Virus record (IMG/VR): IMGVR_UViG_3300047476_000704
Span: 32,001 to 96,000 of that record
Length of the DNA stretch: 64,000 nucleotides
DNA from: a virus
Reading direction: 5' to 3' (one strand)
In this document: piece by piece, positions 3,657-32,609 of the stretch
How positions within the stretch are numbered: position 1 is the first letter of the stretch
Layout of the letters: each line of letters begins with the position of its first letter
Translations under genes and position numbers: made by a program
Notes under the pieces: model-generated
The model's input: only the letters and a program-made list of their open reading frames with translations
What the model was told of the DNA's origin: nothing
The model's database searches: none

Positions 3657-4877
3657 TTACCTTCCTACTTCTGATAAATAAAGTTCTTTCATTTTCTCCC
3701 AACTAATACCAATTGCATCTACATAAAATAGAACCTCTGGTTTAATCTTACCTTCATCGTATAATTTAATGTAACGATTTTTGGCTTTCTTTTTCCACCA
3801 ATCCATTGTATATTGAATACCATTCTTAAACTTGTCTTTCAATACCAATTCATCTTCGGAAATCTTATCACATAAGAACTCATTACCATTCTCATACATT
3901 TGTGCGAAATATACACCTCTTTGAAATCCGTGGTCATATGCATCTGATTTAATTCCCAACTCTTTATAGATTGATTGAATAATCTTTTGCTTAATACCAC
4001 TTACAGGTCCGTTTTTTTCATAACCCATATTAGCACCATTTCTTTCACGTTCTTGTGTAATATTTTTACTATACCACTCTGAACGATTTTCTTTAATCCA
4101 TTGATGCCAAGGGTCATAAACCGAATCATCTGGCTTTGTAGAAATCTTACCTTTTGATTCACCTAATGTTTTGAAGTGAGGGATACCATTGTATTGTGAG
4201 TGAATACCATATAGGGATGTTGTACCTATACCAACTAATGGATTACTATATTTCTTTTTCCAATAATCCCGTATCTCTGGTGCGGTTGCTAATGCTGCAA
4301 TTAGTTTACCACCCAAAAAGTTATAACCAAATGGTTGTGTTGATACGATAGTAGTTGCAATAGCAGTACAATTCAATTTACCCTTCTTAAACTTATCATC
4401 TTTACTCCAACCAATGTATGCATCTCTAACACCCAATGATGTAATATCAGAACCTAAACAAATCTGTCCTAATATTTTACCAGTCTTTCTATCTTTTGCA
4501 TAGATTTTAACATTACGACCTGGGTTAGCAGAGAACTCCATTGTATGGATAAGTCTACGAATATCAGTCCATCTTGTTGATTCCTTTGGATTATCTTCAA
4601 CAATTTCCACATAAGGGTCTAACTCATCCAATTCTTTCAGAGTTAGCTCCTTATTGTATATATCGGTTGGTCTCCACAATACATCGTAGAATTGTCCCAA
4701 ATATGATTTTTTAGGAAATGTTGTTTTTAAATCCGCATTCCATTCCATCCACTTTTTGTATAGTGTTTGTTCTTCAACGGACATTTCTTTAAGATAATCC
4801 AAATTCTCAATGAACTTGCGTTTCATCTCATCGTAATTAAAAACCTCCTTTGGTTCTTCGGTATCCCAAAACTTCAT
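3657..4877 (-). CDS. DUF4338 / Druantia DruA-like protein (GNAT/Mom-related)
   Basis: PGRNVK, LGVRDAYIGW, QPFGYNFLGGKLIA, TTSLYG..SQYN motifs. Confidence 0.7.
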   Translation of the reverse strand: MKFWDTEEPKEVFNYDEMKRKFIENLDYLKEMSVEEQTLYKKWMEWNADLKTTFPKKSYLGQFYDVLWRPTDIYNKELTLKELDELDPYVEIVEDNPKESTRWTDIRRLIHTMEFSANPGRNVKIYAKDRKTGKILGQICLGSDITSLGVRDAYIGWSKDDKFKKGKLNCTAIATTIVSTQPFGYNFLGGKLIAALATAPEIRDYWKKKYSNPLVGIGTTSLYGIHSQYNGIPHFKTLGESKGKISTKPDDSVYDPWHQWIKENRSEWYSKNITQERERNGANMGYEKNGPVSGIKQKIIQSIYKELGIKSDAYDHGFQRGVYFAQMYENGNEFLCDKISEDELVLKDKFKNGIQYTMDWWKKKAKNRYIKLYDEGKIKPEVLFYVDAIGISWEKMKELYLSEVGR

Positions 4878-9634: not shown

Positions 9635-9651
9635 TAAAGTTATGATAATTG

Positions 9652-9741
9652 TAGAGAGTGAGGGGCTCGAACCCTCGCGCCGGTTTTACCCAACCTAACA
9701 GTTTAGCAAACTGCCCCCTTCACCAACTTGGGTAACTCTCT
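9652..9741 (-). tRNA. trnS: tRNA-Ser(GCT)
   Basis: Cloverleaf with long variable arm; loop TTGCTAA. Confidence 0.9.
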
Positions 9742-9742
9742 G

Positions 9743-9818
9743 TGGTGACTCCATCAGGACTCGAACCTGAAACCTACGCATTAGAAGTGCGTTGCTCTAT
9801 CCATTGAGCTATGGAGCC
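9743..9818 (-). tRNA. trnR: tRNA-Arg(TCT)
   Basis: Loop CTTCTAA; CCA encoded. Confidence 0.95.
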
Positions 9819-9823
9819 ATATG

Positions 9824-9909
9824 AGGAGGGTGTGAGATTCGAACTCACGGTCCTGTTACAGACTCCGGTTTTCAAGACCGGTGCAATAGACCAACTCTGC
9901 CAACCCTCC
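9824..9909 (-). tRNA. trnS: tRNA-Ser(TGA)
   Basis: Loop CTTGAAA; long variable arm. Confidence 0.93.
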
Positions 9910-9919
9910 TTTTATTATA

Positions 9920-10474
9920 TTACTCTTCGTTTAATTTCAAATCTTCAATAACTTCTTTATGGATTCGTCTTTCCTCTTCCATTAGTTCTTCTAACATTGC
10001 ATAAACTTCATCTCGATAATCATCATCTCCATAGAATTTATTTGCATCAATATCTTCATCTAAATATTCTTCCGAACCATATTCCGATGAATAATATGCT
10101 ATACCCATTGGGTCACAACTTTCGTCCTGAAATGTATTCTCAATTACAACATCCTCTTTGATACATATAAGTTTAGAACATAATTGTTTAAGTAATGGAT
10201 TTACTGCATCCCATGCTGATGTTAGATTGATTGAAATTTCAGTATCCCATTCTCCCTCAATTTGTCCATATACCCATTTAGCACCAACATTATCATTTAC
10301 CCAACCTCTATCATAATCCTCATCTGTCCAATTCATATCATATACACCATTAATTATATCAATTGTATGTGTATCTCCAATTTCATCCTGCACCGAAAAG
10401 ATTCTTTTCAACTCATCAATAACTGCTTGGTTACAATTTTTAACTCTAACCATATTATCTACGTGATTTGCCAT
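9920..10474 (-). CDS. Acidic hypothetical protein (possibly DUF1281/YubB-like)
   Basis: WVNDNVGAKW motif; inserted in the tRNA array. Confidence 0.6.
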   Translation of the reverse strand: MANHVDNMVRVKNCNQAVIDELKRIFSVQDEIGDTHTIDIINGVYDMNWTDEDYDRGWVNDNVGAKWVYGQIEGEWDTEISINLTSAWDAVNPLLKQLCSKLICIKEDVVIENTFQDESCDPMGIAYYSSEYGSEEYLDEDIDANKFYGDDDYRDEVYAMLEELMEEERRIHKEVIEDLKLNEE

Positions 10475-10827
10475 TAGATTTCTTCGGTTTTAGTTTGTGT
10501 TGAATCAGATTTTAATTTAATTTCGGGATATTTTTGGCGAATTTCAACCGAATCTTCAACTGCCCACTTTTGTTTAAGTTTAGCTCTTTTTTCAATATTC
10601 TTCAATTGTTCTTTCTTCTTTTGAATATCTTTTGTTAGTTTTTCAATACGAACATATTTACTTGCATAATCTTCATCGGTGGCATCAATCCACTCAATTT
10701 TTCTTTTAGATTCTTTGATTTCTGCTTTCAAACTTTCAACCAATGGTGCCTCATCACTAAACTTCGGGTCAATAGTTCCACCCAATGTGTTTAGTAAAAG
10801 CATGATAGACATTCCCAATTCTTTCAT
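10474..10827 (-). CDS. Hypothetical coiled-coil protein
   Basis: ORF downstream of a sigma-A promoter. Confidence 0.65.
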   Translation of the reverse strand: MKELGMSIMLLLNTLGGTIDPKFSDEAPLVESLKAEIKESKRKIEWIDATDEDYASKYVRIEKLTKDIQKKKEQLKNIEKRAKLKQKWAVEDSVEIRQKYPEIKLKSDSTQTKTEEI

Positions 10828-10842
10828 ATGAATTATTTTTTA

Positions 10843-10874
10843 CAAATATAAGATATTTTTTTATTATATCCTAA
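10843..10874 (-). promoter_or_regulatory. Bacteroidota sigma-A promoter
   Basis: TTAG-N20-TATATTTG. Confidence 0.7.
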
Positions 10875-10890
10875 TTTTATTTAACTTTTG

Positions 10891-10961
10891 TTACCCGAGC
10901 TGGATTCGAACCAACCCTAACTGCACCAAAAACAGTTGTGCTACCGCTACACCATCGAGCA
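10891..10961 (-). tRNA. trnQ: tRNA-Gln(TTG)
   Basis: Loop TTTTGGT; cloverleaf. Confidence 0.9.
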
Positions 10962-10966
10962 ATTCG

Positions 10967-11040
10967 CAGTTCGTACGGGATTCGAACCCGTGGTCTCCAC
11001 AGTGACAGTGTGGGATGTTGGGCCTCTACACCAACGAACT
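10967..11040 (-). tRNA. trnD: tRNA-Asp(GTC)
   Basis: Loop CTGTCAC; G73. Confidence 0.95.
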
Positions 11041-11112
11041 AAATGTGATTACTGATTTGACTCATTTCGAACTTTCGGGGCTCGTATCATTCAATTTCAG
11101 TAATCAATAATT

Positions 11113-11298
11113 AAAACAAACTTTTTGTACCCGATGTACATCATAACCAATTCGCATTGGTGGTTACATTTTCGCATTTGGGTTAATTACTCCCGACTTA
11201 TAGTAACTCTCTCCTGACCTGTATGACTATTCCGGCTTCAACAGTACCCTTTTGGATTTTATATACCGAGGGGTTACACCTCAGTCTTCGTTTGTTTT
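11113..11298 (-). ncRNA. Candidate structured ncRNA
   Basis: 9-bp closing stem, CCAAT-GCGA-ATTGG and TGTAC/GTACA hairpins; no ORF. Confidence 0.45.
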
Positions 11299-11299
11299 G

Positions 11300-11372
11300 A
11301 GCTTCCAGTCGGAATCGAACCAACAACCTCTCGATTACAAATCGAAGGCTCTACCAGTTGAGCTATGGAAGC
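11300..11372 (-). tRNA. trnT: tRNA-Thr(TGT)
   Basis: Loop TTTGTAA. Confidence 0.93.
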
Positions 11373-11782
11373 GTATTATTTCTTTTTTGCAAAGCTATTT
11401 TAGAACCTTTTATACCACCTTCTAACATTCTAGCATAACCTTCTTCTGATATATTTTTTAAACCAAAAGTTGGAGTTTGTGAATGACAATTAGGACACAT
11501 TATTTTTAGGTTTTCATGTCTATTATCTCTTCTATTTCCATTTATATGGTCAATCTGAAATGTTATTGGTTTTCCATTATATTCGGTAATACCACATTCT
11601 TCACATCTTTCACCTCTTATCTTTTTAAGATGAATACCCATACCTTTACTCCAATTAGTATCTAATTGAAACTTTGTTTTAATTCTATCGGCTGCTGAAC
11701 AATCCCACCCACAATACAATCCTTTTGATTGAGATGGCATATATGTTATTTCTTTTCCACAATTTTTACAATTTGATTTCAT
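11363..11782 (-). CDS. HNH homing endonuclease-like protein
   Basis: CEECG...IDHINGNRRDNRHENLKIMCPNCH; stop codon lies inside tRNA-Thr. Confidence 0.85.
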   Translation of the reverse strand: MKSNCKNCGKEITYMPSQSKGLYCGWDCSAADRIKTKFQLDTNWSKGMGIHLKKIRGERCEECGITEYNGKPITFQIDHINGNRRDNRHENLKIMCPNCHSQTPTFGLKNISEEGYARMLEGGIKGSKIALQKRNNTLP

Positions 11783-11796
11783 AGTATTTTCTTTAC

Positions 11797-11804
11797 TATA
11801 AATA
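11797..11804 (-). promoter_or_regulatory. Putative late-promoter motif TATTTATA
   Basis: 15 nt upstream of the HNH start. Confidence 0.55.
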
Positions 11805-11843
11805 TTAGGTTACTAAAAAAAAGTAAAGTAACCTAACCAAATG

Positions 11844-11917
11844 TACTCCGGACGGGACTCGAACCCGTAAGCTTCCACGTGAAAGGCGGATGTCCTAACC
11901 AATTAGACGACCGGAGC
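11844..11917 (-). tRNA. trnE: tRNA-Glu(TTC)
   Basis: Loop CTTTCAC. Confidence 0.94.
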
Positions 11918-11922
11918 ATTTA

Positions 11923-11954
11923 CAAATATAACTATTTTATTTTTTAATTCCAAA
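11923..11954 (-). promoter_or_regulatory. Bacteroidota sigma-A promoter
   Basis: TTTG-N20-TATATTTG directly upstream of tRNA-Glu. Confidence 0.8.
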
Positions 11955-11971
11955 CTTTTATGGAATTATTT

Positions 11972-12054
11972 TGGTGGGGGCAGAAAGACTCGAACTTCCG
12001 AACCCGAAGGAGAGCATTTACAGTGCCCCGCAATTGCCGCTATGCGATACCCCC
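11972..12054 (-). tRNA. trnY: tRNA-Tyr(GTA)
   Basis: Loop CTGTAAA; variable arm; CCA encoded. Confidence 0.95.
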
Positions 12055-12152
12055 AATTTAGTCTTTTCCTTACCTCTTAATAACCACATTGCCAGTCCGA
12101 TGTTACTATCGGATGCTTACCAAAATCATACTTTGGAGCGATTACTACATTG

Positions 12153-12224
12153 AGCAGGTAGTCAGATTCGAACTGACGTCTCCGGTTTGGAAGACCAGAG
12201 CACTAACCACTGTGCTATACCTGC
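12153..12224 (-). tRNA. trnG: tRNA-Gly(TCC), canonical
   Basis: Loop CTTCCAA; U73. Confidence 0.93.
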
Positions 12225-12229
12225 AAATT

Positions 12230-12450
12230 TCCCCACTTGAGATTCCAGATGAGTAGATATTTATAGTTTTTCCTTTCAAAAACCCAATGCATCTTACTGC
12301 TTAAAAAGTCAACACTACGGGGAGGAGCCGTGTCCCCACTCCTTTATTCCCACGAGAACGGCGTTTTATTAGTTAGGATGTCCGCTCCATTACCCTATCC
12401 ATTGTTAAATGAGTCTTGGATTAAAGACTACCGAGTATCTCTTACTCGTT
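12230..12450 (-). ncRNA. Candidate structured ncRNA with possible pseudoknot
   Basis: CGAGTA/TACTCG, AGTCTT/AAGACT and GTTTTT/AAAAAC hairpins; crossed GGAG/CTCC and GGGGA/TCCCC stems. Confidence 0.45.
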
Positions 12451-12451
12451 G

Positions 12452-12525
12452 TGGACCAGGTAGGAATCGAACCTACTACCTTCACATTATGAGTGTGCCG
12501 CTCTAACCGAGTGAGCTACAAGTCC
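12452..12525 (-). tRNA. tRNA with CAT anticodon (Ile2 or elongator Met)
   Basis: Loop CTCATAA; G1:C72; identity not resolvable by eye. Confidence 0.85.
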
Positions 12526-12579
12526 ATATCGTTTAATCTAACGATAAAATCTAATATCGTTTCTTTCAACGATAAATAA

Positions 12580-12689
12580 GGTGCCGGAGGAGAGATTGGT
12601 TACTCTCACGATGCCCTTCTCGGTTACACCACCACTCTAGAATAGGTACGTCTAATGGTTGTACTTCCCATTTGTTCCGCCACTCCGGC
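12580..12689 (-). ncRNA. Remodelled tRNA-Leu-like RNA (110 nt)
   Basis: Acceptor GCCGGAG/CTCCGGC + ACC; Leu-type D-arm with hairpin insert; disrupted anticodon stem; T-loop TAACCAAT. Confidence 0.6.
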
Positions 12690-12699
12690 ATATTTCTTT

Positions 12700-12776
12700 T
12701 GGTGGAGAAAGTGGGATTCGAACCCACGACCTCTTGAATGCAAATCAAGCGTTCTAGCCAACTGAACTAAATCCCC
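12700..12776 (-). tRNA. trnA: tRNA-Ala(TGC)
   Basis: G3:U70; loop TTTGCAT; CCA encoded. Confidence 0.93.
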
Positions 12777-12780
12777 ATTA

Positions 12781-12884
12781 TGTAACGGCTGTGCGGTTTG
12801 TGTCTCATTCACTCCTTTATACGAGCTTCAAAAGTTTCCATTTCATACCTAGCGTCTGTTCCGCCATTCTTTCGAATCGTTACA
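12781..12884 (-). ncRNA. tRNA-derived RNA (104 nt)
   Basis: 7-bp closing stem TGTAACG/CGTTACA; ATTC-GAAA-GAAT hairpin; Leu-type TGGCGGAACAGACGC; no TTC loop. Confidence 0.45.
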
Positions 12885-12887
12885 TTG

Positions 12888-12971
12888 TACTTCGGACTGG
12901 AATCGAACCAGCACTCTCTTACGAAAACAAGATTTTAAGTCTTGCGGGTCTACCTATTCCCCCACCGAAGC
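12888..12971 (-). tRNA. trnL: tRNA-Leu(TAA)
   Basis: Loop CTTAAAA; variable arm. Confidence 0.94.
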
Positions 12972-12978
12972 AACTTTA

Positions 12979-13010
12979 CAAATATACGAAACTTTTTTCA
13001 TATATCCAAA
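12979..13010 (-). promoter_or_regulatory. Bacteroidota sigma-A promoter
   Basis: TTTG-N20-TATATTTG upstream of tRNA-Leu(TAA). Confidence 0.85.
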
Positions 13011-13033
13011 TGATTTCAACAAAAAGTTTAATG

Positions 13034-13103
13034 TTGCGTGTGTGGGGTTCGAACCCACTTGACTTTCCTTATGAGAGATAGCTCTTTTCCACCAAGCCAC
13101 GCA
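13034..13103 (-). tRNA. Degenerate tRNA-Met(CAT)
   Basis: Good T-arm and loop CTCATAA; weak D-arm; mismatched anticodon stem. Confidence 0.6.
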
Positions 13104-13106
13104 ATA

Positions 13107-13183
13107 TGGGGTGTTTAATGGGATTCGAACCCATACTATCAGTACCACAAACTGATGTGCTAACCATTAACACCATAAACAAC
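13107..13183 (-). tRNA. trnH: tRNA-His(GTG)
   Basis: G-1:C73; loop TTGTGGT; CCA encoded. Confidence 0.94.
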
Positions 13184-13184
13184 G

Positions 13185-13256
13185 AGGTGAATATTGGATT
13201 CGAACCAATGTAAAAGGTTTTGCAGACCTCCACCTTACCAACTCGGTCAATTCACC
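13185..13256 (-). tRNA. trnC: tRNA-Cys(GCA)
   Basis: Loop CTGCAAA; U73. Confidence 0.94.
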
Positions 13257-13262
13257 ATTATG

Positions 13263-13334
13263 TAGTTCCATAGAGACTCGAACTCCAACTTTGACATCCG
13301 TAGTGTCAGGTGCTATCCATTACACCATAGAACC
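13263..13334 (-). tRNA. trnR: tRNA-Arg(ACG)
   Basis: Loop CTACGGA. Confidence 0.94.
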
Positions 13335-13338
13335 ATTG

Positions 13339-13409
13339 CACGTCCTGAAAGATTCGAACTTTCATCTGCGGTTTTGGAGACCGATATGCTACCATTGCAC
13401 CAAAGACAT
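13339..13409 (-). tRNA. trnW: tRNA-Trp(CCA)
   Basis: Loop CTCCAAA; G73. Confidence 0.92.
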
Positions 13410-13441
13410 GTATTTTATTTCCAAAGTAAAAAATTACCTTC

Positions 13442-13477
13442 AAAAAATTTTTCCAACTTCACCCAAAAGTTGAAAAA
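13442..13477 (-). terminator. Terminator-like hairpin inside the tRNA array
   Basis: TCAACTT/AAGTTGG stem with flanking T/A pairs followed by T6. Confidence 0.45.
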
Positions 13478-13480
13478 GTG

Positions 13481-13554
13481 TAGAGAAAATAGGACTCGAA
13501 CCTATAACCTTCTGCGTATCAGGCAAATGCTCTAACCAATTGAGCTATATCTCT
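13481..13554 (-). tRNA. trnI: tRNA-Ile(GAT)
   Basis: Loop CTGATAC. Confidence 0.93.
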
Positions 13555-13560
13555 ATTCGG

Positions 13561-13633
13561 TAGGGTAAGCAGGACTCGAACCTACAACCTCACGCACCCA
13601 AAACGTGTAATCTAGCCATTGATATACTACCCT
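13561..13633 (-). tRNA. trnP: tRNA-Pro(TGG)
   Basis: Loop TTTGGGT. Confidence 0.92.
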
Positions 13634-13639
13634 ATATTG

Positions 13640-13712
13640 TGAACCCGTTGGGAATCGAACCCAAAACCCCTACATTAAAAGTGTAGTGCTCTACCAATTG
13701 AGCTACGAGTTC
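13640..13712 (-). tRNA. trnK: tRNA-Lys(TTT)
   Basis: Loop CTTTTAA. Confidence 0.95.
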
Positions 13713-13714
13713 GT

Positions 13715-13791
13715 TGGTGGAGCAGACAGGTATCGAACCTGTTCCTCTGGATTTTCAGTCCAGCGCAATGCACCTCATCTGCCACTACTCC
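13715..13791 (-). tRNA. trnF: tRNA-Phe(GAA)
   Basis: Loop CTGAAAA; CCA encoded. Confidence 0.93.
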
Positions 13792-13831
13792 TTCTAATCC
13801 GATTTTGATTTGTAGCATCGGGAACTACCTG

Positions 13832-13905
13832 TGTCCATAGTAGGATTCGAACCTACACAATCTGGTTTCTAAAACCAACACGGTTGCCAATTACGTCATA
13901 CGGAC
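13832..13905 (-). tRNA. trnL: tRNA-Leu(TAG) with short variable loop
   Basis: Loop TTTAGAA; only 5 nt variable region. Confidence 0.85.
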
Positions 13906-13913
13906 ATTTATTG

Positions 13914-13986
13914 TAGTGAGTGAGGGACTCGAACCCCCAACATCCGCCATGTAAAGACGGCGCTCTACCAATTGAGCTAACCCACT
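13914..13986 (-). tRNA. trnV: tRNA-Val(TAC)
   Basis: Loop TTTACAT. Confidence 0.94.
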
Positions 13987-13997
13987 GTTTCACCATT

Positions 13998-14010
13998 ATG
14001 TCAAAGAACT
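13998..14010 (-). promoter_or_regulatory. rrn-type boxA antitermination element
   Basis: AGTTCTTTGACAT between tRNA-Asn and tRNA-Val. Confidence 0.65.
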
Positions 14011-14018
14011 TATTCTTG

Positions 14019-14090
14019 CGTTGATGGTAGGATTCGAACCTACGACCAATAGATTAACAGTCTACTGCGCTACCACTGCGCCACATCAAC
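14019..14090 (-). tRNA. trnN: tRNA-Asn(GTT)
   Basis: Loop CTGTTAA; G73. Confidence 0.95.
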
Positions 14091-14104: not shown

Positions 14105-14136
14105 AAAAAAACCCCTAACTTTTTGAGTCAGGGGTT
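14105..14136 (-). terminator. Intrinsic terminator (attenuator) in front of the tRNA array
   Basis: AACCCCTGACT-CAAAA-AGTTAGGGGTT followed by TTTTT; ends 15 nt before tRNA-Asn. Confidence 0.85.
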
Positions 14137-14163
14137 GTTTTAATTTAAGTATGTAGTTTGGTC

Positions 14164-14307
14164 TTATCCCAAGTCTACATCGTTTAATATTGTTGCCCCT
14201 AACTGATTTTCAATTCCTTTCGAACTAAAATCACACACGCGATTGCCTGCCCACATCAAATTTGATGTCGGTTGATAAGCTATCGTATGCAGGTTAAGAG
14301 TTTTCAT
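14164..14307 (-). CDS. Putative attenuator leader peptide (47 aa, all 20 amino acids)
   Basis: MKTLNLHTIAYQPTSNLMWAGNRVCDFSSKGIENQLGATILNDVDLG*; below track length cut-off; contains the antiterminator segment. Confidence 0.7.
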   Translation of the reverse strand: MKTLNLHTIAYQPTSNLMWAGNRVCDFSSKGIENQLGATILNDVDLG

Positions 14308-14350
14308 TTTCTTTTTTCTTTTAATATATATAAGTTTTTTTTATTTTAAG

Positions 14351-14911
14351 TTAAAAATCGTAATATCCTTTTACTTTTGTTATATTACAATCGCTATTCC
14401 AAGATATAATTGTTTTTACTACATCACTATCAACTCTAGGTGCTCTATGTAGAATAAAACTTGGGAATGTTAGAACATCTCCTTCTTTCACATCCATCTC
14501 AATTATTTCATCCTGATTTATTGGATTTAATAATTGTGTTTTTGGAGAACCTTCTGGTAAATCTAAATAATAAACATTAGTCCATTGGCATCCTAAATGA
14601 ACATGCCAACCATGTTCCGAACCTTTGTTGTATTGTTGAAACCAAATATTTCTTATTTTAATTTCATCATACCCAAGCTCATCAAATCTATGTTGTAATA
14701 GATTAGTTATTGGTTGCATTACTGGCTTCAAATAAAGCCGTTCAACTTCCCTACTTACATCCCAATCTGTTCTACTTATATCAGTATAATCATTTGGAAA
14801 TGTATATCTTGTAGATTCACATTCATTTATTAATTTCAATACCTCATCCTTTATTATTTCATGCTCTGGTAATTTGGAGATGATATATGGACATTGTATT
14901 GATTTAATCAT
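14351..14911 (-). CDS. 2OG-Fe(II) oxygenase-like protein
   Basis: WFQQY...HGWHVH...VYYL...FPSFILHR double-stranded beta-helix motifs. Confidence 0.75.
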   Translation of the reverse strand: MIKSIQCPYIISKLPEHEIIKDEVLKLINECESTRYTFPNDYTDISRTDWDVSREVERLYLKPVMQPITNLLQHRFDELGYDEIKIRNIWFQQYNKGSEHGWHVHLGCQWTNVYYLDLPEGSPKTQLLNPINQDEIIEMDVKEGDVLTFPSFILHRAPRVDSDVVKTIISWNSDCNITKVKGYYDF

Positions 14912-14922
14912 AATCTAATTTT

Positions 14923-14995
14923 TGGAGCGGAGGGATGGAATCGAACCACCTCATTGTACTGGAATGTACACATGCTACCGGAACACTTCCTCCGC
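14923..14995 (-). tRNA. Atypical tRNA-Gly(TCC) with 6-nt anticodon loop
   Basis: TGTAC-ATTCCA-GTACA; G1:C72, C2:G71, U73, CCA encoded. Confidence 0.8.
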
Positions 14996-15204
14996 TTATA
15001 ATTTAGAAAGATTTGTGGGGTGGCTCTTTCTAGTGGAACTAGCTACATTCCGTTTTTACCATTCAACTTTTATTCGTATCGTTGAAGTTATTTTATAGGT
15101 TAAACTCCCCACCTAAAAACTTGGTATTACTTTTTAATCTGATTTGTGGTTAAAGTGTAAAATCAATCTCGTTACCTTCACGCCTATTGAAAACCACTAC
15201 GAAG

Positions 15205-15282: not shown

Positions 15283-16200
15283 ATTACGGATGAGAATACT
15301 CACGTAAACGAACCAGCTTTTGTTGGATTATTGTTTCCCAACTTTTCCACTATCTTTTGGATAGTACCGATTCAATGCGGGTTAGTTAAGCCAACCACTC
15401 ATAAAGTTACAAACTACTCTCTCTTTACTCCGCTTCTTCTACTCTGCCGAACAGATTCACACTTGCGGTGTTAGAAGTTTTTCGAAAGAATCACAGACCT
15501 CTTGCGGAGGTATCGTGGCAGGGAACATCTCCCTACTATGTACGCACCTTTCGTTTGCAACTGGCGAACACTTTTGCTCTTTTTGTTTAAGATTTGCGTC
15601 AAATGCAAAATGAGTTTGGTTTGTAGATGGTTTCAAGTAGTGGTTCACCAACCTGCTCCGTTATCTTTTGAACAACAGAATACTGAACTACTCGATGTGT
15701 TATCCCTAACACCATACTTTAAGTCTGCTTCATAACTCCTACCTTGGTAGGTGAAGAGTAAGGATAATAACGACACCACTCGTACTTTATCTTACCTTTC
15801 GGTTTTAAGCAAACTCTAATATTGAATCACGCAATTGTTGAAAGGGATTAAGTTTCAGTTTCTCGCAATAACTCTATGGATTATTCTTATTGGTGTTCCC
15901 ACCTCAACTGAACTATCTACTTTAGCCCAGTCATTTCACCACCCTCTTTACAGTGTTACCCTCAATACTAAAGGTGAAATGATATTCCACTTGCCTACTC
16001 AAGCTCCTTTCGAAGCCGCAAATCACTTAAACCAAATGATTCACTTTATCCTACTTTCGTAGTTTATTTCACGACCATAGGCGGCCGATGTACACTATGT
16101 AGAACTAGTCTACTATGTGCTAATGCTTTTAATAATAATTGAAATGTTGTACATTTTACGGGCGTCTTATTTACAATTAGTCTACTATCCCACAATTATT
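15283..16200 (-). ncRNA. Giant structured ncRNA, GOLLD-like (about 900 nt)
   Basis: No credible ORF; many GNRA-capped hairpins on the minus strand; 10-bp TCATTTCACC/GGTGAAATGA helix; own promoter and boxA; among tRNAs; ends approximate. Confidence 0.65.
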
Positions 16201-17258: not shown

Positions 17259-17283
17259 TAGTGGAGATGAAGAAAACGAATAG

Positions 17284-17670
17284 TGGAGATGGTGGTATTC
17301 GAAACCACGTCCAGATAAGTTTCTAATGTAAATCGTTCACAAGTTTATTCAATTTTTCTAAACTGAAAAAATATAGAGTTTCTATTTTGCCATTGCCACT
17401 CTCAAATGTGGAAGATTCACTTTAATAGGTAGAACCTCAAACGAGACCTCACTTCCGTTCACTTCTTTTTAAGTCCCACGAGTGATGCGGGATTGATTAG
17501 GCAGCTACTGCGTAATCGAATGAGTTCATCCATGCCATAGCATCTTCGAACGTCATTGTAGATAATTCTACGTCTGCACTTATTGTTTGATAGGTATTCA
17601 AAGGTTTCCATCTAACCTTACTTGCATCAATACAACCAGTCTTCATACCTGTCAAAAGCCGGTCATCCCC
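17284..17670 (-). ncRNA. ssrA: tmRNA
   Basis: 5' GGGGATGACCGGCTTTTGACAG; G3:U70; T-arm; 3' CATCTCCA; tag ADVELSTMTFEDAMAWMNSFDYAVAA* (17577-17497). Confidence 0.95.
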
Positions 17671-18339: not shown

Positions 18340-19146
18340 TTATCTTATTATCTTACCTTTTAATGCTCTTGCAGTTATAATCCATTTTTTAGCAATTGGA
18401 TTTGTTATTGGTTGTGCTAAAAATCTAGCTGCTGCTTTTGTTACATCACCATGCTTAACACCTGCTACTGAATTATCTACAATTGAGAATTTGTATCCAC
18501 CAAATAATCTTTGGAACTTACCCATATTCTCTTGGCATGCTTTCCAACTCTTTACCAATAATTCTTCTGGTACTACTCTACTTCTTTGTTGGTTTCTTTC
18601 TTTTGCTACTTCCAAAGATGTATTTACAAAAACCATATAGCAATCATACCCTAATGCTTCGGCATGTGCTTTTTGTTTTGCAATCTTATCGTACTCATGC
18701 CCAGTACCATCAATAATCATACCTAATCTACCGGCTTCGTAAAAATCTTTTAACTTTTTTGTTATACCTTTTGCAATATTACGAATTGAATCTGGCGATT
18801 TTCCTTGTATTTTATCCCATAATTGTGGGTCTTCTTTTTCAATTTTTGCTAAATCCTTTGGGTCTATACCATTCTTCTTTAAACCAGCTTCAAATGCGGC
18901 ATCTGAATTTACAACTTTTAAACCAGATGGTGCAAATTTTGTATAATCAACTACACCAAAGATTTCTTTTGATGTATATCCTTTACCACTACCAGGTCCA
19001 CCTGCTAAAAATACACACTTAAATATACCAGGGTCATCAACACCCTCTGCAATCATTTGCTCTTGCAACTTTTGCTTTGTTCTTTGTAAGTATGTGCTTA
19101 AAGTAGATAGTTCATCTACTGCTTCGTTCAATAAATGTTTAGACAT
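18340..19146 (-). CDS. Zeta-toxin / AAA_33-like P-loop kinase
   Basis: FLAGGPGSGKG, VVNSD, IIDGTG, ERNQQRSR lid. Confidence 0.8.
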   Translation of the reverse strand: MSKHLLNEAVDELSTLSTYLQRTKQKLQEQMIAEGVDDPGIFKCVFLAGGPGSGKGYTSKEIFGVVDYTKFAPSGLKVVNSDAAFEAGLKKNGIDPKDLAKIEKEDPQLWDKIQGKSPDSIRNIAKGITKKLKDFYEAGRLGMIIDGTGHEYDKIAKQKAHAEALGYDCYMVFVNTSLEVAKERNQQRSRVVPEELLVKSWKACQENMGKFQRLFGGYKFSIVDNSVAGVKHGDVTKAAARFLAQPITNPIAKKWIITARALKGKIIR

Positions 19147-31481: not shown

Positions 31482-32609
31482 TTATTCATCACCTAATACA
31501 CTTGTATCTACTAATAGATTATCTGTATCCAATGAATCTTTTTTGTATTGTAGAATAGTGTATTCACAAATTCGTTTATAGATTTGTTCTTTTACCGATG
31601 GATTTGCTTCCAATATTTCCTGCAACTCTTTGGCTTGGAACTTAAATTCTTCACCAGTTTCAGTATCAACATATGTGTACCACGCTCCACCTTGTTTAAC
31701 AAAGTTATAATCCTTCATTGCTCCCAACCATGCGCCATAGTTATCAATACCCCTATCAAAGAAAATATCAAAATCTGCGGAACGCAATGGTGGTCCTAAT
31801 CTATTCTTAATTACATTGGCTCTTACTTTGATACCAACGATTCTCTCATTCCCCTTGTCATCCTTTGCTTTGATTTTACCAGTTGATGCTAATCTTAACC
31901 GAACCGAAGCATGGAAAGCAATTGCTTTACCACCCGATGTTGTCCAAGGGTCTGAAAATGCCATTGCGTTCATCTTTTGGCGTAATTGGTTTGTGAATAC
32001 TAATGTAATCTTTTGTCTACCAATCACATTTGTGATTTTACGCATTGCCTTTGAAATGATGATTGCTTTATCAGTTGCGTAACCATCTTTATCGTAATCA
32101 GCTTCTAGCTCTCTTTTTGTAGATGCTGCTGCAACTGAATCCACTACGATAGTTACTAACTTATCCTTATCACCTTTTCGTACTTGCTCAATGATTGTAT
32201 CAATTGTTTCAAATATATCCTCAACGGTATCAGCCGTAATATATAATAGTTTGGATACATCTACACCAATTGCATCAAAGAACTCTCTACTTACAGCAGT
32301 TTCAGTATCAATCAATACTGCAACACCACCTTGCTTTTGCGTTTCTGCTAGCACGTGTGCTGATAATAATGATTTACCACTCTGCTCTAAACCAGTGATT
32401 TCCGTAATTCTACCAACCGGAAAACCTCCGAATGGTCTATTGGAAACCGCCACATCCAACATTGTTGCCCCAGAAGAGACCCACCCACTTATATTAGTGG
32501 GTGCGTCCTCCGAGTCATCATCTAAAAAGAACGCAACCTTTTGGTCTTTGTATTTCTTGTTTAGATTATCGGCAATTTGTTGTGCTAAATCCGCTTGAAC
32601 TTTTGCCAT
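31482..32609 (-). CDS. recA: RecA/UvsX recombinase
   Basis: GLEQSGKS, IDTE, DSVAA, TNQLR, GGKAIAFHAS. Confidence 0.95.
   Translation of the reverse strand: MAKVQADLAQQIADNLNKKYKDQKVAFFLDDDSEDAPTNISGWVSSGATMLDVAVSNRPFGGFPVGRITEITGLEQSGKSLLSAHVLAETQKQGGVAVLIDTETAVSREFFDAIGVDVSKLLYITADTVEDIFETIDTIIEQVRKGDKDKLVTIVVDSVAAASTKRELEADYDKDGYATDKAIIISKAMRKITNVIGRQKITLVFTNQLRQKMNAMAFSDPWTTSGGKAIAFHASVRLRLASTGKIKAKDDKGNERIVGIKVRANVIKNRLGPPLRSADFDIFFDRGIDNYGAWLGAMKDYNFVKQGGAWYTYVDTETGEEFKFQAKELQEILEANPSVKEQIYKRICEYTILQYKKDSLDTDNLLVDTSVLGDE

Follow-up and report, generated by a model that had tools for sequence, protein, structure and literature searches.

A candidate leader-peptide attenuator at the head of a phage tRNA array, with an amino-acid content that follows the tRNA genes behind it

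What decides when a phage expresses its tRNA genes? Such genes are usually viewed as a fixed supplement to codon usage or as substitutes for host tRNAs that are destroyed in the course of infection, and, to our knowledge, the control of their expression is largely unknown. The question is raised by a locus in the IMG/VR virus record IMGVR_UViG_3300047476_000704, of which we analyzed a window of 64,000 nucleotides (nt), positions 32,001 to 96,000 of the record; the whole genome is 195 kb. On the minus strand of this window, to which all coordinates below refer, a short leader open reading frame (ORF) of 47 codons plus TAA (14164–14307) stands ahead of an array of 23 tRNAs (9651–14090, predicted with ARAGORN) that covers all 20 amino acids. 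We consider it likely, on comparative grounds, that the leader is a ribosome-mediated (leader-peptide) transcription attenuator heading the array and that its ORF is a roster of the amino acids carried by the downstream tRNAs. The phage would then probably make tRNAs when ribosomes are slow to decode the leader's amino acids.

An initial annotation of the locus had read it as an attenuator that senses all 20 amino acids. That reading is supported by an ORF kept open, a conserved four-segment RNA layout, the lack of space for a promoter and, from a comparison that the annotation had not proposed, the covariation of leader and array; a strict "all 20" is not conserved in the nearest relatives. 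The annotation had started from composition, and on the sequence we confirm that residues 7–33 contain all 20 amino-acid kinds, that 30 of the first 33 codons are distinct, and that the ORF draws on both boxes of Leu and of Ser, on ATA as well as ATT and on GGC as well as GGA. This 27-residue span is the shortest of its kind anywhere in the genome (the runners-up are 30 and 31), but spans of 27 residues or fewer arose in 10 of 30 simulated order-2 Markov genomes of equal size, and the chance of finding all 20 kinds in a random 47-mer is p = 0.01–0.03. Glu33 is, moreover, private to the window lineage; the other 47-codon variants, four in number, carry Lys33 and have 19 kinds. The span in this single leader is thus weak evidence by itself and only suggestive. 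Because random genomes often reach it and the nearest relatives have 19 kinds, any significance must come from the family.

Leader composition and array content across a family

The initial annotation had proposed looking for a short ORF ahead of related tRNA arrays. A pattern search returned a family of 126 loci, all selected for an in-frame ORF of 29–53 codons, from lake and other aquatic viral and metagenome contigs; with duplicates removed they amount to 79 elements, 68 ORFs and 59 peptides, the latter 29, 30, 38, 39, 47, 51, 52 or 53 residues long. Each lies past tmRNA (transfer-messenger RNA) and GOLLD RNA genes and immediately ahead of a tRNA array. In 70 of 77 distinct elements that array begins with tRNA-Asn (tRNA-Asn(GUU) at 14018–14090 in the window; ARAGORN and Rfam). 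Homologs of 47 residues found by protein search are 81–98% identical. A nucleotide search (nhmmer) of loci anchored on a neighboring kinase gene added two distant homologs (L043 and L044), again directly before tRNA-Asn. Among 12 kinase-gene relatives scanned for tRNAs, only these two have an array within 10 kb, and among all 80 such relatives nhmmer finds the element only in close relatives and in these two.

We compared the amino acids in each leader with those served by the array behind it, reading arrays as far as the records extend and recovering missed tRNAs with Rfam and with BLAST against the family's own tRNAs, as ARAGORN missed some Asn and His tRNAs. Across 42 distinct peptide/array pairs, an amino acid was present in both leader and array in 612 cells, absent from both in 70, and present in the leader without a tRNA in the array in 150. 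Of the amino acids served by an array, 612/620 (98.7%) are therefore represented in its leader, although leaders have only 29–53 residues. Long-form arrays whose full extent could be read (at least 5 kb downstream) are complete without exception, and 28 of the 32 distinct long-form peptides have 20 kinds. The expectation of conserved diversity is borne out to that extent, whereas its strict form is lost in the nearest relatives: the four exceptions are clade A variants (the clade of the window) without Glu.

In 24 short-form pairs, 68 of the 76 kinds missing from a leader are also missing from its array. Permuting labels gave 28.2 on average, with 68 not reached once in 100,000 permutations (p < 1e-5), a test that keeps all relatedness among the phages. 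Phylogenetically independent pairs, taken from a tree built from flanking DNA only, gave 12.5 changes in the same direction, 0.15 in the opposite direction and 25.3 unchanged (median sign-test p = 5e-4). Where tRNA-Gln and tRNA-Pro are lost, the leader's NQPN becomes NITN, INSN or IDTN; where tRNA-His is lost, LTHT becomes LTQT; a Tyr codon is swapped for a Cys codon where tRNA-Tyr is absent and tRNA-Cys present; and Lys2 becomes Arg where tRNA-Lys is absent. The match is seen in the whole peptide and in the part between RNA segments 1 and 2, described below (p = 0.002), and in neither head nor tail alone. Codons past segment 2 cannot favor the antiterminator pairing and, in the geometry of this leader, are unable to act as sensors, so a signal in the middle part fits. 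Taken together, we regard this sequence comparison as decisive evidence that the leader's amino-acid set co-evolves with the tRNA set of the array behind it.

Two observations on the tRNA predictions belong here. A tRNA-His 96% identical to that of sister arrays was missed by ARAGORN in several clade D arrays (L123, L124 and L125 among the clade), and in L123 it also scored below the gathering score of the Rfam tRNA model. Matching of leader codons to isoacceptors, rather than to amino acids, was also considered; it holds for Leu(UAG) and was rejected for Arg(ACG) and Ser(UGA).

Predicted alternative RNA pairings and a probably translated leader

The predicted switch has four segments. Segment 1 (CUCUUAAC; codons 3–5, 14293–14300) pairs with segment 2 and would be the anti-antiterminator strand. 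Segment 2 (UCAGUUAGGGG; codons 35–38, 14196–14206) is a copy of the terminator 3' arm and can pair with either segment 1 or segment 3. Segments 3 (AACCCCUGACU; 14126–14136, from the sequence and the family alignment) and 4 (AGUUAGGGGUU; 14110–14120) are the 5' and 3' arms of a predicted intrinsic terminator, the stem of which (14136–14110) has 11 pairs and a 5-nt loop and is followed by a T run, U7 in the RNA (14105–14111). Two pairings described in the initial annotation are present: the 9-nt repeat AGTTAGGGG of the terminator 3' arm recurs in segment 2, where it can form 9 bp with the 5' arm (−15.7 kcal/mol), and a protector, segment 1 (CTCTTAAC), pairs with segment 2 (8 bp, −8.7 kcal/mol). 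Its distance from terminator to tRNA-Asn needs a small correction, as the T run ends 14 nt, not 15, before the tRNA (14090). Over distinct family members this gap is 0–25 nt, most commonly 5–9, which leaves no space for a promoter. An intrinsic terminator is thus predicted between leader ORF and first tRNA with no intervening promoter, and mutually exclusive pairings, a 2:3 antiterminator and a 1:2 anti-antiterminator, overlap the ORF; both are hallmarks of an attenuator.

Folding supports these alternatives. The fold z-score of the window leader is −6.1. Over 41 distinct segment combinations, duplex energies of the core segments are −5 to −11 kcal/mol for 1:2, −10 to −20 for 2:3 and −13 to −19 for 3:4, the last reaching −21 kcal/mol with wider flanks in seven representatives. 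The minimum free energy structure of the full-length leader combines 1:2 with 3:4 in six of those seven; in the window leader, a fold with 1:4 and 2:3 is nearly isoenergetic with it (−62.4 versus −62.5). Nascent RNA that does not yet include segment 4 is predicted to fold as 2:3.

The layout is conserved across the family. A GUUAGRGG copy (segment 2) lies inside the ORF of every member, though it was absent from the search pattern. Segment 1 occurs as CUCUUAAC, CUUUAAC or CUCUAAC and changes together with segment 2. The clade A motifs are GGGG (segment 2), CCCC (segment 3) and CUCU (segment 1), against GAGG, CCUC and CUUU or CUCU in the other clades, so that between clades G or A in segment 2 is matched by C or U in segments 1 and 3. 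Clade A has lost the ancestral segment 2 to decay and carries a new copy 15 nt farther upstream, which retains the pairing. MAFFT does not align this copy with segment 2 of the other clades, and the six clade A rows are consequently counted as unpaired at 2:3, a result of relocation and not of loss of pairing. Across 36 rows, 97.7% of terminator cells are paired, and 10 rows have C-G in place of A-U at one pair. Outside clade A, the 2:3 core pairs in each of the 30 rows but is nearly invariant, and covariation within clades is sparse. For the covarying helices that the initial annotation had proposed to test, the evidence is the A-U to C-G swap of 3:4 and the between-clade matches of segments 1, 2 and 3. 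Among 36 hits of the search pattern outside the family set, 33 are unrelated DNA without segment 2 or tRNA-Asn; the other three are an intact member missed by the filter (L110), one cut by the end of its locus (L119) and one with a stop codon (L168), to which we return.

Several features indicate that the leader is probably translated. Across eight length classes and 68 distinct versions its ORF stays open, with shared start and stop contexts, and the other two frames contain 5.2 and 3.7 stops on average. The ratio of nonsynonymous to synonymous changes (pN/pS) is 0.23–0.78, and in the long forms third positions change in excess. The leader starts in an A-rich context without a Shine-Dalgarno (SD) sequence, which is typical of this phage's genes, 14% of which have an SD-like 4-mer; this fits a Bacteroidota-like host, as had been suggested. 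We take these patterns as strong indirect evidence for a translated ORF whose peptide sequence would be only loosely constrained.

The leader has further elements. A long imperfect hairpin within the ORF (codons 6–25, 14235–14290) shows three compensatory double changes in clade A, and an equivalent is predicted in every clade. A second hairpin in the ORF (14205–14232) is missing from the 29–30-codon forms, and a third, spanning the stop codon (14151–14180), is invariant in clade A outside its loop. Upstream, a conserved AT-rich box, TTATATATATTA (14322–14333), lies 15–26 nt before the start codon. Clade A shows no change in its core, the window has no enrichment of it elsewhere, and the other clades have a similar TAGATATATATTAACA box immediately next to the ATG. 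The box might serve as a −10-like promoter element or belong to an SD-less initiation region.

A proposed mechanism and its rivals

How would such a leader control the array? A ribosome would start on the leader during its transcription. If it ran to the stop codon, segment 1 would re-pair with segment 2 and, in most family members, the terminating ribosome would also cover the 3' end of segment 2 (the stop codon lies 14 nt past this segment in 55 of 79 elements and 17 nt past it in 13 more). Segment 3 would then pair with segment 4, and RNA polymerase would halt at the U tract just before tRNA-Asn. Were one charged tRNA scarce, a stall at any codon between segments 1 and 2 would make segment 1 unavailable, segment 2 would pair with segment 3 as an antiterminator, and the array would be transcribed. 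Once charged tRNA was again sufficient, termination would resume, which would close a feedback loop. We infer that stalling leads to read-through, and likewise the polarity of the switch and its physiological trigger, either starvation or tRNA cleavage. Slightly short of an even chance, in our estimate, is the more specific proposal that selection has matched an "any-of-N" sensor to the array, in which shortage or cleavage of any single tRNA kind carried by the phage would switch on the whole array. Starvation, host tRNA decay or an anticodon-nuclease defense would stall the leader ribosome, and the phage tRNAs would then shut the array off.

A number of observations count against the attenuator as we propose it. 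The leader has no tandem runs or clusters of regulatory codons, only single or few codons for 14–20 amino-acid kinds scattered along the ORF, which implies low sensitivity to partial starvation. In the 47–53-codon forms, a ribosome stalled in the middle of the ORF would cover neither segment 1 nor segment 2, so antitermination would need queued ribosomes or steric hindrance. In clade A, including the window, the stop codon is 29 nt beyond segment 2, and a terminating ribosome would be unable to mask that segment. Neither a sigma-70 consensus scan nor a search for the AT-rich box revealed a convincing promoter upstream of the leader, as the initial annotation had likewise reported for sigma-A sites. 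The match between leader and array is also imperfect: in eight cells the array has a tRNA whose amino acid the leader lacks; Glu is missing from the leaders of clade A relatives though tRNA-Glu is present; one locus (L195) has a full short leader ahead of a decayed array; and matching is by amino acid, failing at the isoacceptor level for Arg(ACG) and Ser(UGA), the boxes of which are often unrepresented. Long forms keep their 20 kinds mostly by conservation of sites, that is, by inheritance, and a column shuffle for compensated relocation of rare residues gave p = 0.011 in one length class and no significance in the others. The family was, furthermore, collected by a pattern made from the stop context and the terminator arm, which fixes the last codon, the stop and segment 4. 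One pattern hit, L168, carries a window-like leader copy on its minus strand, about 140 nt upstream of the match at 401–463, in which codon 19 has changed from TGG to TAG along with three more nonsynonymous changes; the copy may have decayed, or the assembly may be wrong at this point. In favor of the attenuator, RNA-library contigs from two studies bridge the terminator into tRNA-Asn. This support is weak, with low depth and possible DNA carry-over, and because the evidence consists of contigs, it gives no starts, ends or levels. One RNA-library run (X1) has no cover over 14118–14265, from which we draw no conclusion.

Some of these observations would suit a different sensor. An attenuator coupled to translation but sensing general translation capacity (ribosome availability or RNA polymerase coupling), in which composition plays no sensing role, fits the architecture equally well and is favored by single codons in place of runs, by the lack of isoacceptor-level matching for Arg and Ser and by long-form diversity that is mostly inherited. 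We nonetheless think it unlikely, as it leaves unexplained why amino acids vanish from the leader along with the tRNA genes of the array and how 98.7% of array amino acids come to be represented in leaders of 29–53 residues. The same architecture might also work with the opposite polarity, active translation (polysomes on segment 1) causing read-through and stalled or absent translation causing termination. The thermodynamic preference for 2:3 over 1:2 whenever segment 4 is absent points that way, as does the clade A terminating ribosome that leaves segment 2 free. Such a switch would, however, give no sensible feedback on tRNA supply and would leave roster matching without a rationale, and with the stop 14 nt after segment 2 in most elements (17 nt in others) a ribosome can cover the G-rich end of the segment; the idea has, we believe, little probability.

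The remaining rivals dispense with attenuation. An ordinary small protein gene with its own terminator, its peptide functional in its own right and the tRNAs expressed by leaky read-through or from downstream promoters, would account for a pN/pS below 1, for the conserved peptide termini (M-K/R-T..HT at the N terminus, LEDTDVG at the C terminus) and for the promoter-like sites within the array. Yet those termini coincide with RNA segments 1 and 2, the peptide's middle tolerates indels up to 24 codons, the leader peptide has no Pfam match, and no member has room for a promoter between the element and the first tRNA, to which it is always fused. Nor would this reading explain the conserved alternative pairing or the agreement of roster and array; we rate it as improbable. 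It is still less probable that the leader is a structured, riboswitch-like non-coding RNA or small RNA in which the ORF is incidental. The fold z-score, the compensatory changes in the hairpin inside the ORF and a clade A non-coding spacer as conserved as the ORF would all agree with it, whereas an ORF open in 68 versions and eight length classes, other frames rich in stops, the third-position bias of long forms and a pN/pS below 1 would not. Its middle domain varies in length and sequence, unlike an aptamer, and cmscan at permissive thresholds found no Rfam family for the leader, the sole match being BTnc005 at 21 bits against a gathering score of 175 bits. Least credible of all is chance, an unremarkable diverse short ORF beside the terminator of the upstream gene. 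All-20 spans of 27 residues are indeed frequent in random genomes, Glu33 is lineage-specific, and L001, the closest relative by the 186-residue upstream gene, lacks the element; but the element is conserved with the tRNA array and not with that gene, which is absent from L015 and L016, and the family-level statistics exclude chance. The leader-peptide attenuator remains the reading that we prefer.

Genomic setting, known systems and implications

The region around the leader is dense in non-coding RNA genes. In order it comprises tmRNA (17281–17670), GOLLD RNA (15287–15695; Rfam, 294 bits), tRNA-Gly, an odd tRNA, a gene for a 186-residue 2-oxoglutarate (2OG)-Fe(II) oxygenase, the leader and the 23 tRNAs, the first contiguous block of which (13107–14090) holds 11. 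The initial annotation had counted 24 tRNAs covering all 20 amino acids; the coverage is correct, but ARAGORN predicts 23 downstream of the leader and two upstream. It had also placed promoters inside the array, and promoter-like sites are found at about 13008–12981 and 11953–11925, which may add independent transcription of distal blocks.

We considered the oxygenase gene (14351–14911) as a part of the system and rejected it. The near relatives L015 and L016 lack it, their leaders directly following the odd tRNA, and relative to them it is an insertion; L001 has a 96% identical oxygenase gene with no leader element and a different array head; and the gene's relatives L002–L014 have no tRNAs. 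The leader therefore travels with the array and not with the upstream gene. In related arrays, HNH or homing-endonuclease-like genes stand between tRNAs (3448–3966 in L017; about 1270–1900 in L001), which fits mosaic gain and loss of tRNA blocks.

Other observations concern the neighbors. The GOLLD region (15287–15695, and up to about 16120) has contig depths reaching the thousands in metatranscriptomes, and the distance from the GOLLD match to the start of the leader is about 180 nt in most family members. The odd tRNA-like gene (14923–14995), which ARAGORN assigns a two-base anticodon, is conserved beside tRNA-Gly in L015 and L016. Between it and tRNA-Gly lies a discrete RNA-library fragment of about 164 nt (15019–15182), possibly an abundant small RNA, with sequencing adapters at both ends and a depth of 400–756 in two metatranscriptome runs. 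The kinase gene that served as an anchor (AAA_33/Zeta-toxin-like, 18340–19146) adjoins the tmRNA gene and has about 390 relatives in viral contigs, mostly without a nearby tRNA array. Elsewhere in the window, a 406-residue protein (3657–4877) matches Pfam DruA (Druantia) with E = 7e-19, here in a phage genome.

The closest parallels are the enterobacterial leader-peptide attenuators (trpL, hisL, leuL and pheL; thr and ilvGMEDA). There, too, a short leader ORF precedes the regulated genes, the terminator 5' arm can pair with an upstream segment instead, and a further upstream segment in the ORF sequesters the antiterminator; the trp leader has similar energies, about −11, −12 and −20 kcal/mol, and sensing of more than one amino acid is already found in the ilv and thr leaders. 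The phage element differs in controlling tRNA genes and not biosynthetic enzymes, in having one or few codons for up to 20 amino acids without tandem runs, and in placing segment 1 at codons 3–5, upstream of the presumed sensing codons. Its leader is long (29–53 codons) with internal hairpins, has an SD-less start context and evolves in composition with the gene content of the operon that it would control.

T-box riboswitches likewise gate transcription by a choice between terminator and antiterminator and tie tRNA charging to the supply of translation components. However, their ligand is one specific uncharged tRNA, bound directly by specifier codon and T-box bulge with no translation involved, whereas the phage element has a conserved ORF and many amino acids. 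A cmscan at permissive thresholds found no T-box match and no Stem I or T-box motif in the phage leader, and we rejected this identity. Stringent or growth-rate control of tRNA and rRNA operons (ppGpp/DksA at the promoter) also couples stable-RNA synthesis to translational status, but through a small molecule, at initiation, and it shuts tRNA synthesis off on starvation; the phage element would act after initiation and would raise tRNA synthesis when decoding is slow. Full-text literature searches returned no paper in which phage tRNA arrays are connected with leader peptides or attenuators, and the GenBank phage collection contained no relative of the leader element, its matches being limited to tRNA-Asn and the 2OG oxygenase gene.

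If the proposed attenuator is real, the ribosome would be the place where tRNA supply is sensed, with feedback on tRNA transcription, and attenuation, the textbook mechanism of amino-acid operons, would have been re-used for stable-RNA genes. Sensor and regulated gene set would co-evolve in a manner that can be read from sequence alone. The element would also be a compact natural part of about 150–220 nt with which the decoding speed of many amino acids could be monitored simultaneously, and it would provide a testable link between phage tRNA arrays and host defenses that target tRNAs. An any-of-N sensor, if that proposal is also true, would make the leader a self-tuning homeostat of tRNA supply and possibly a counter-defense trigger.
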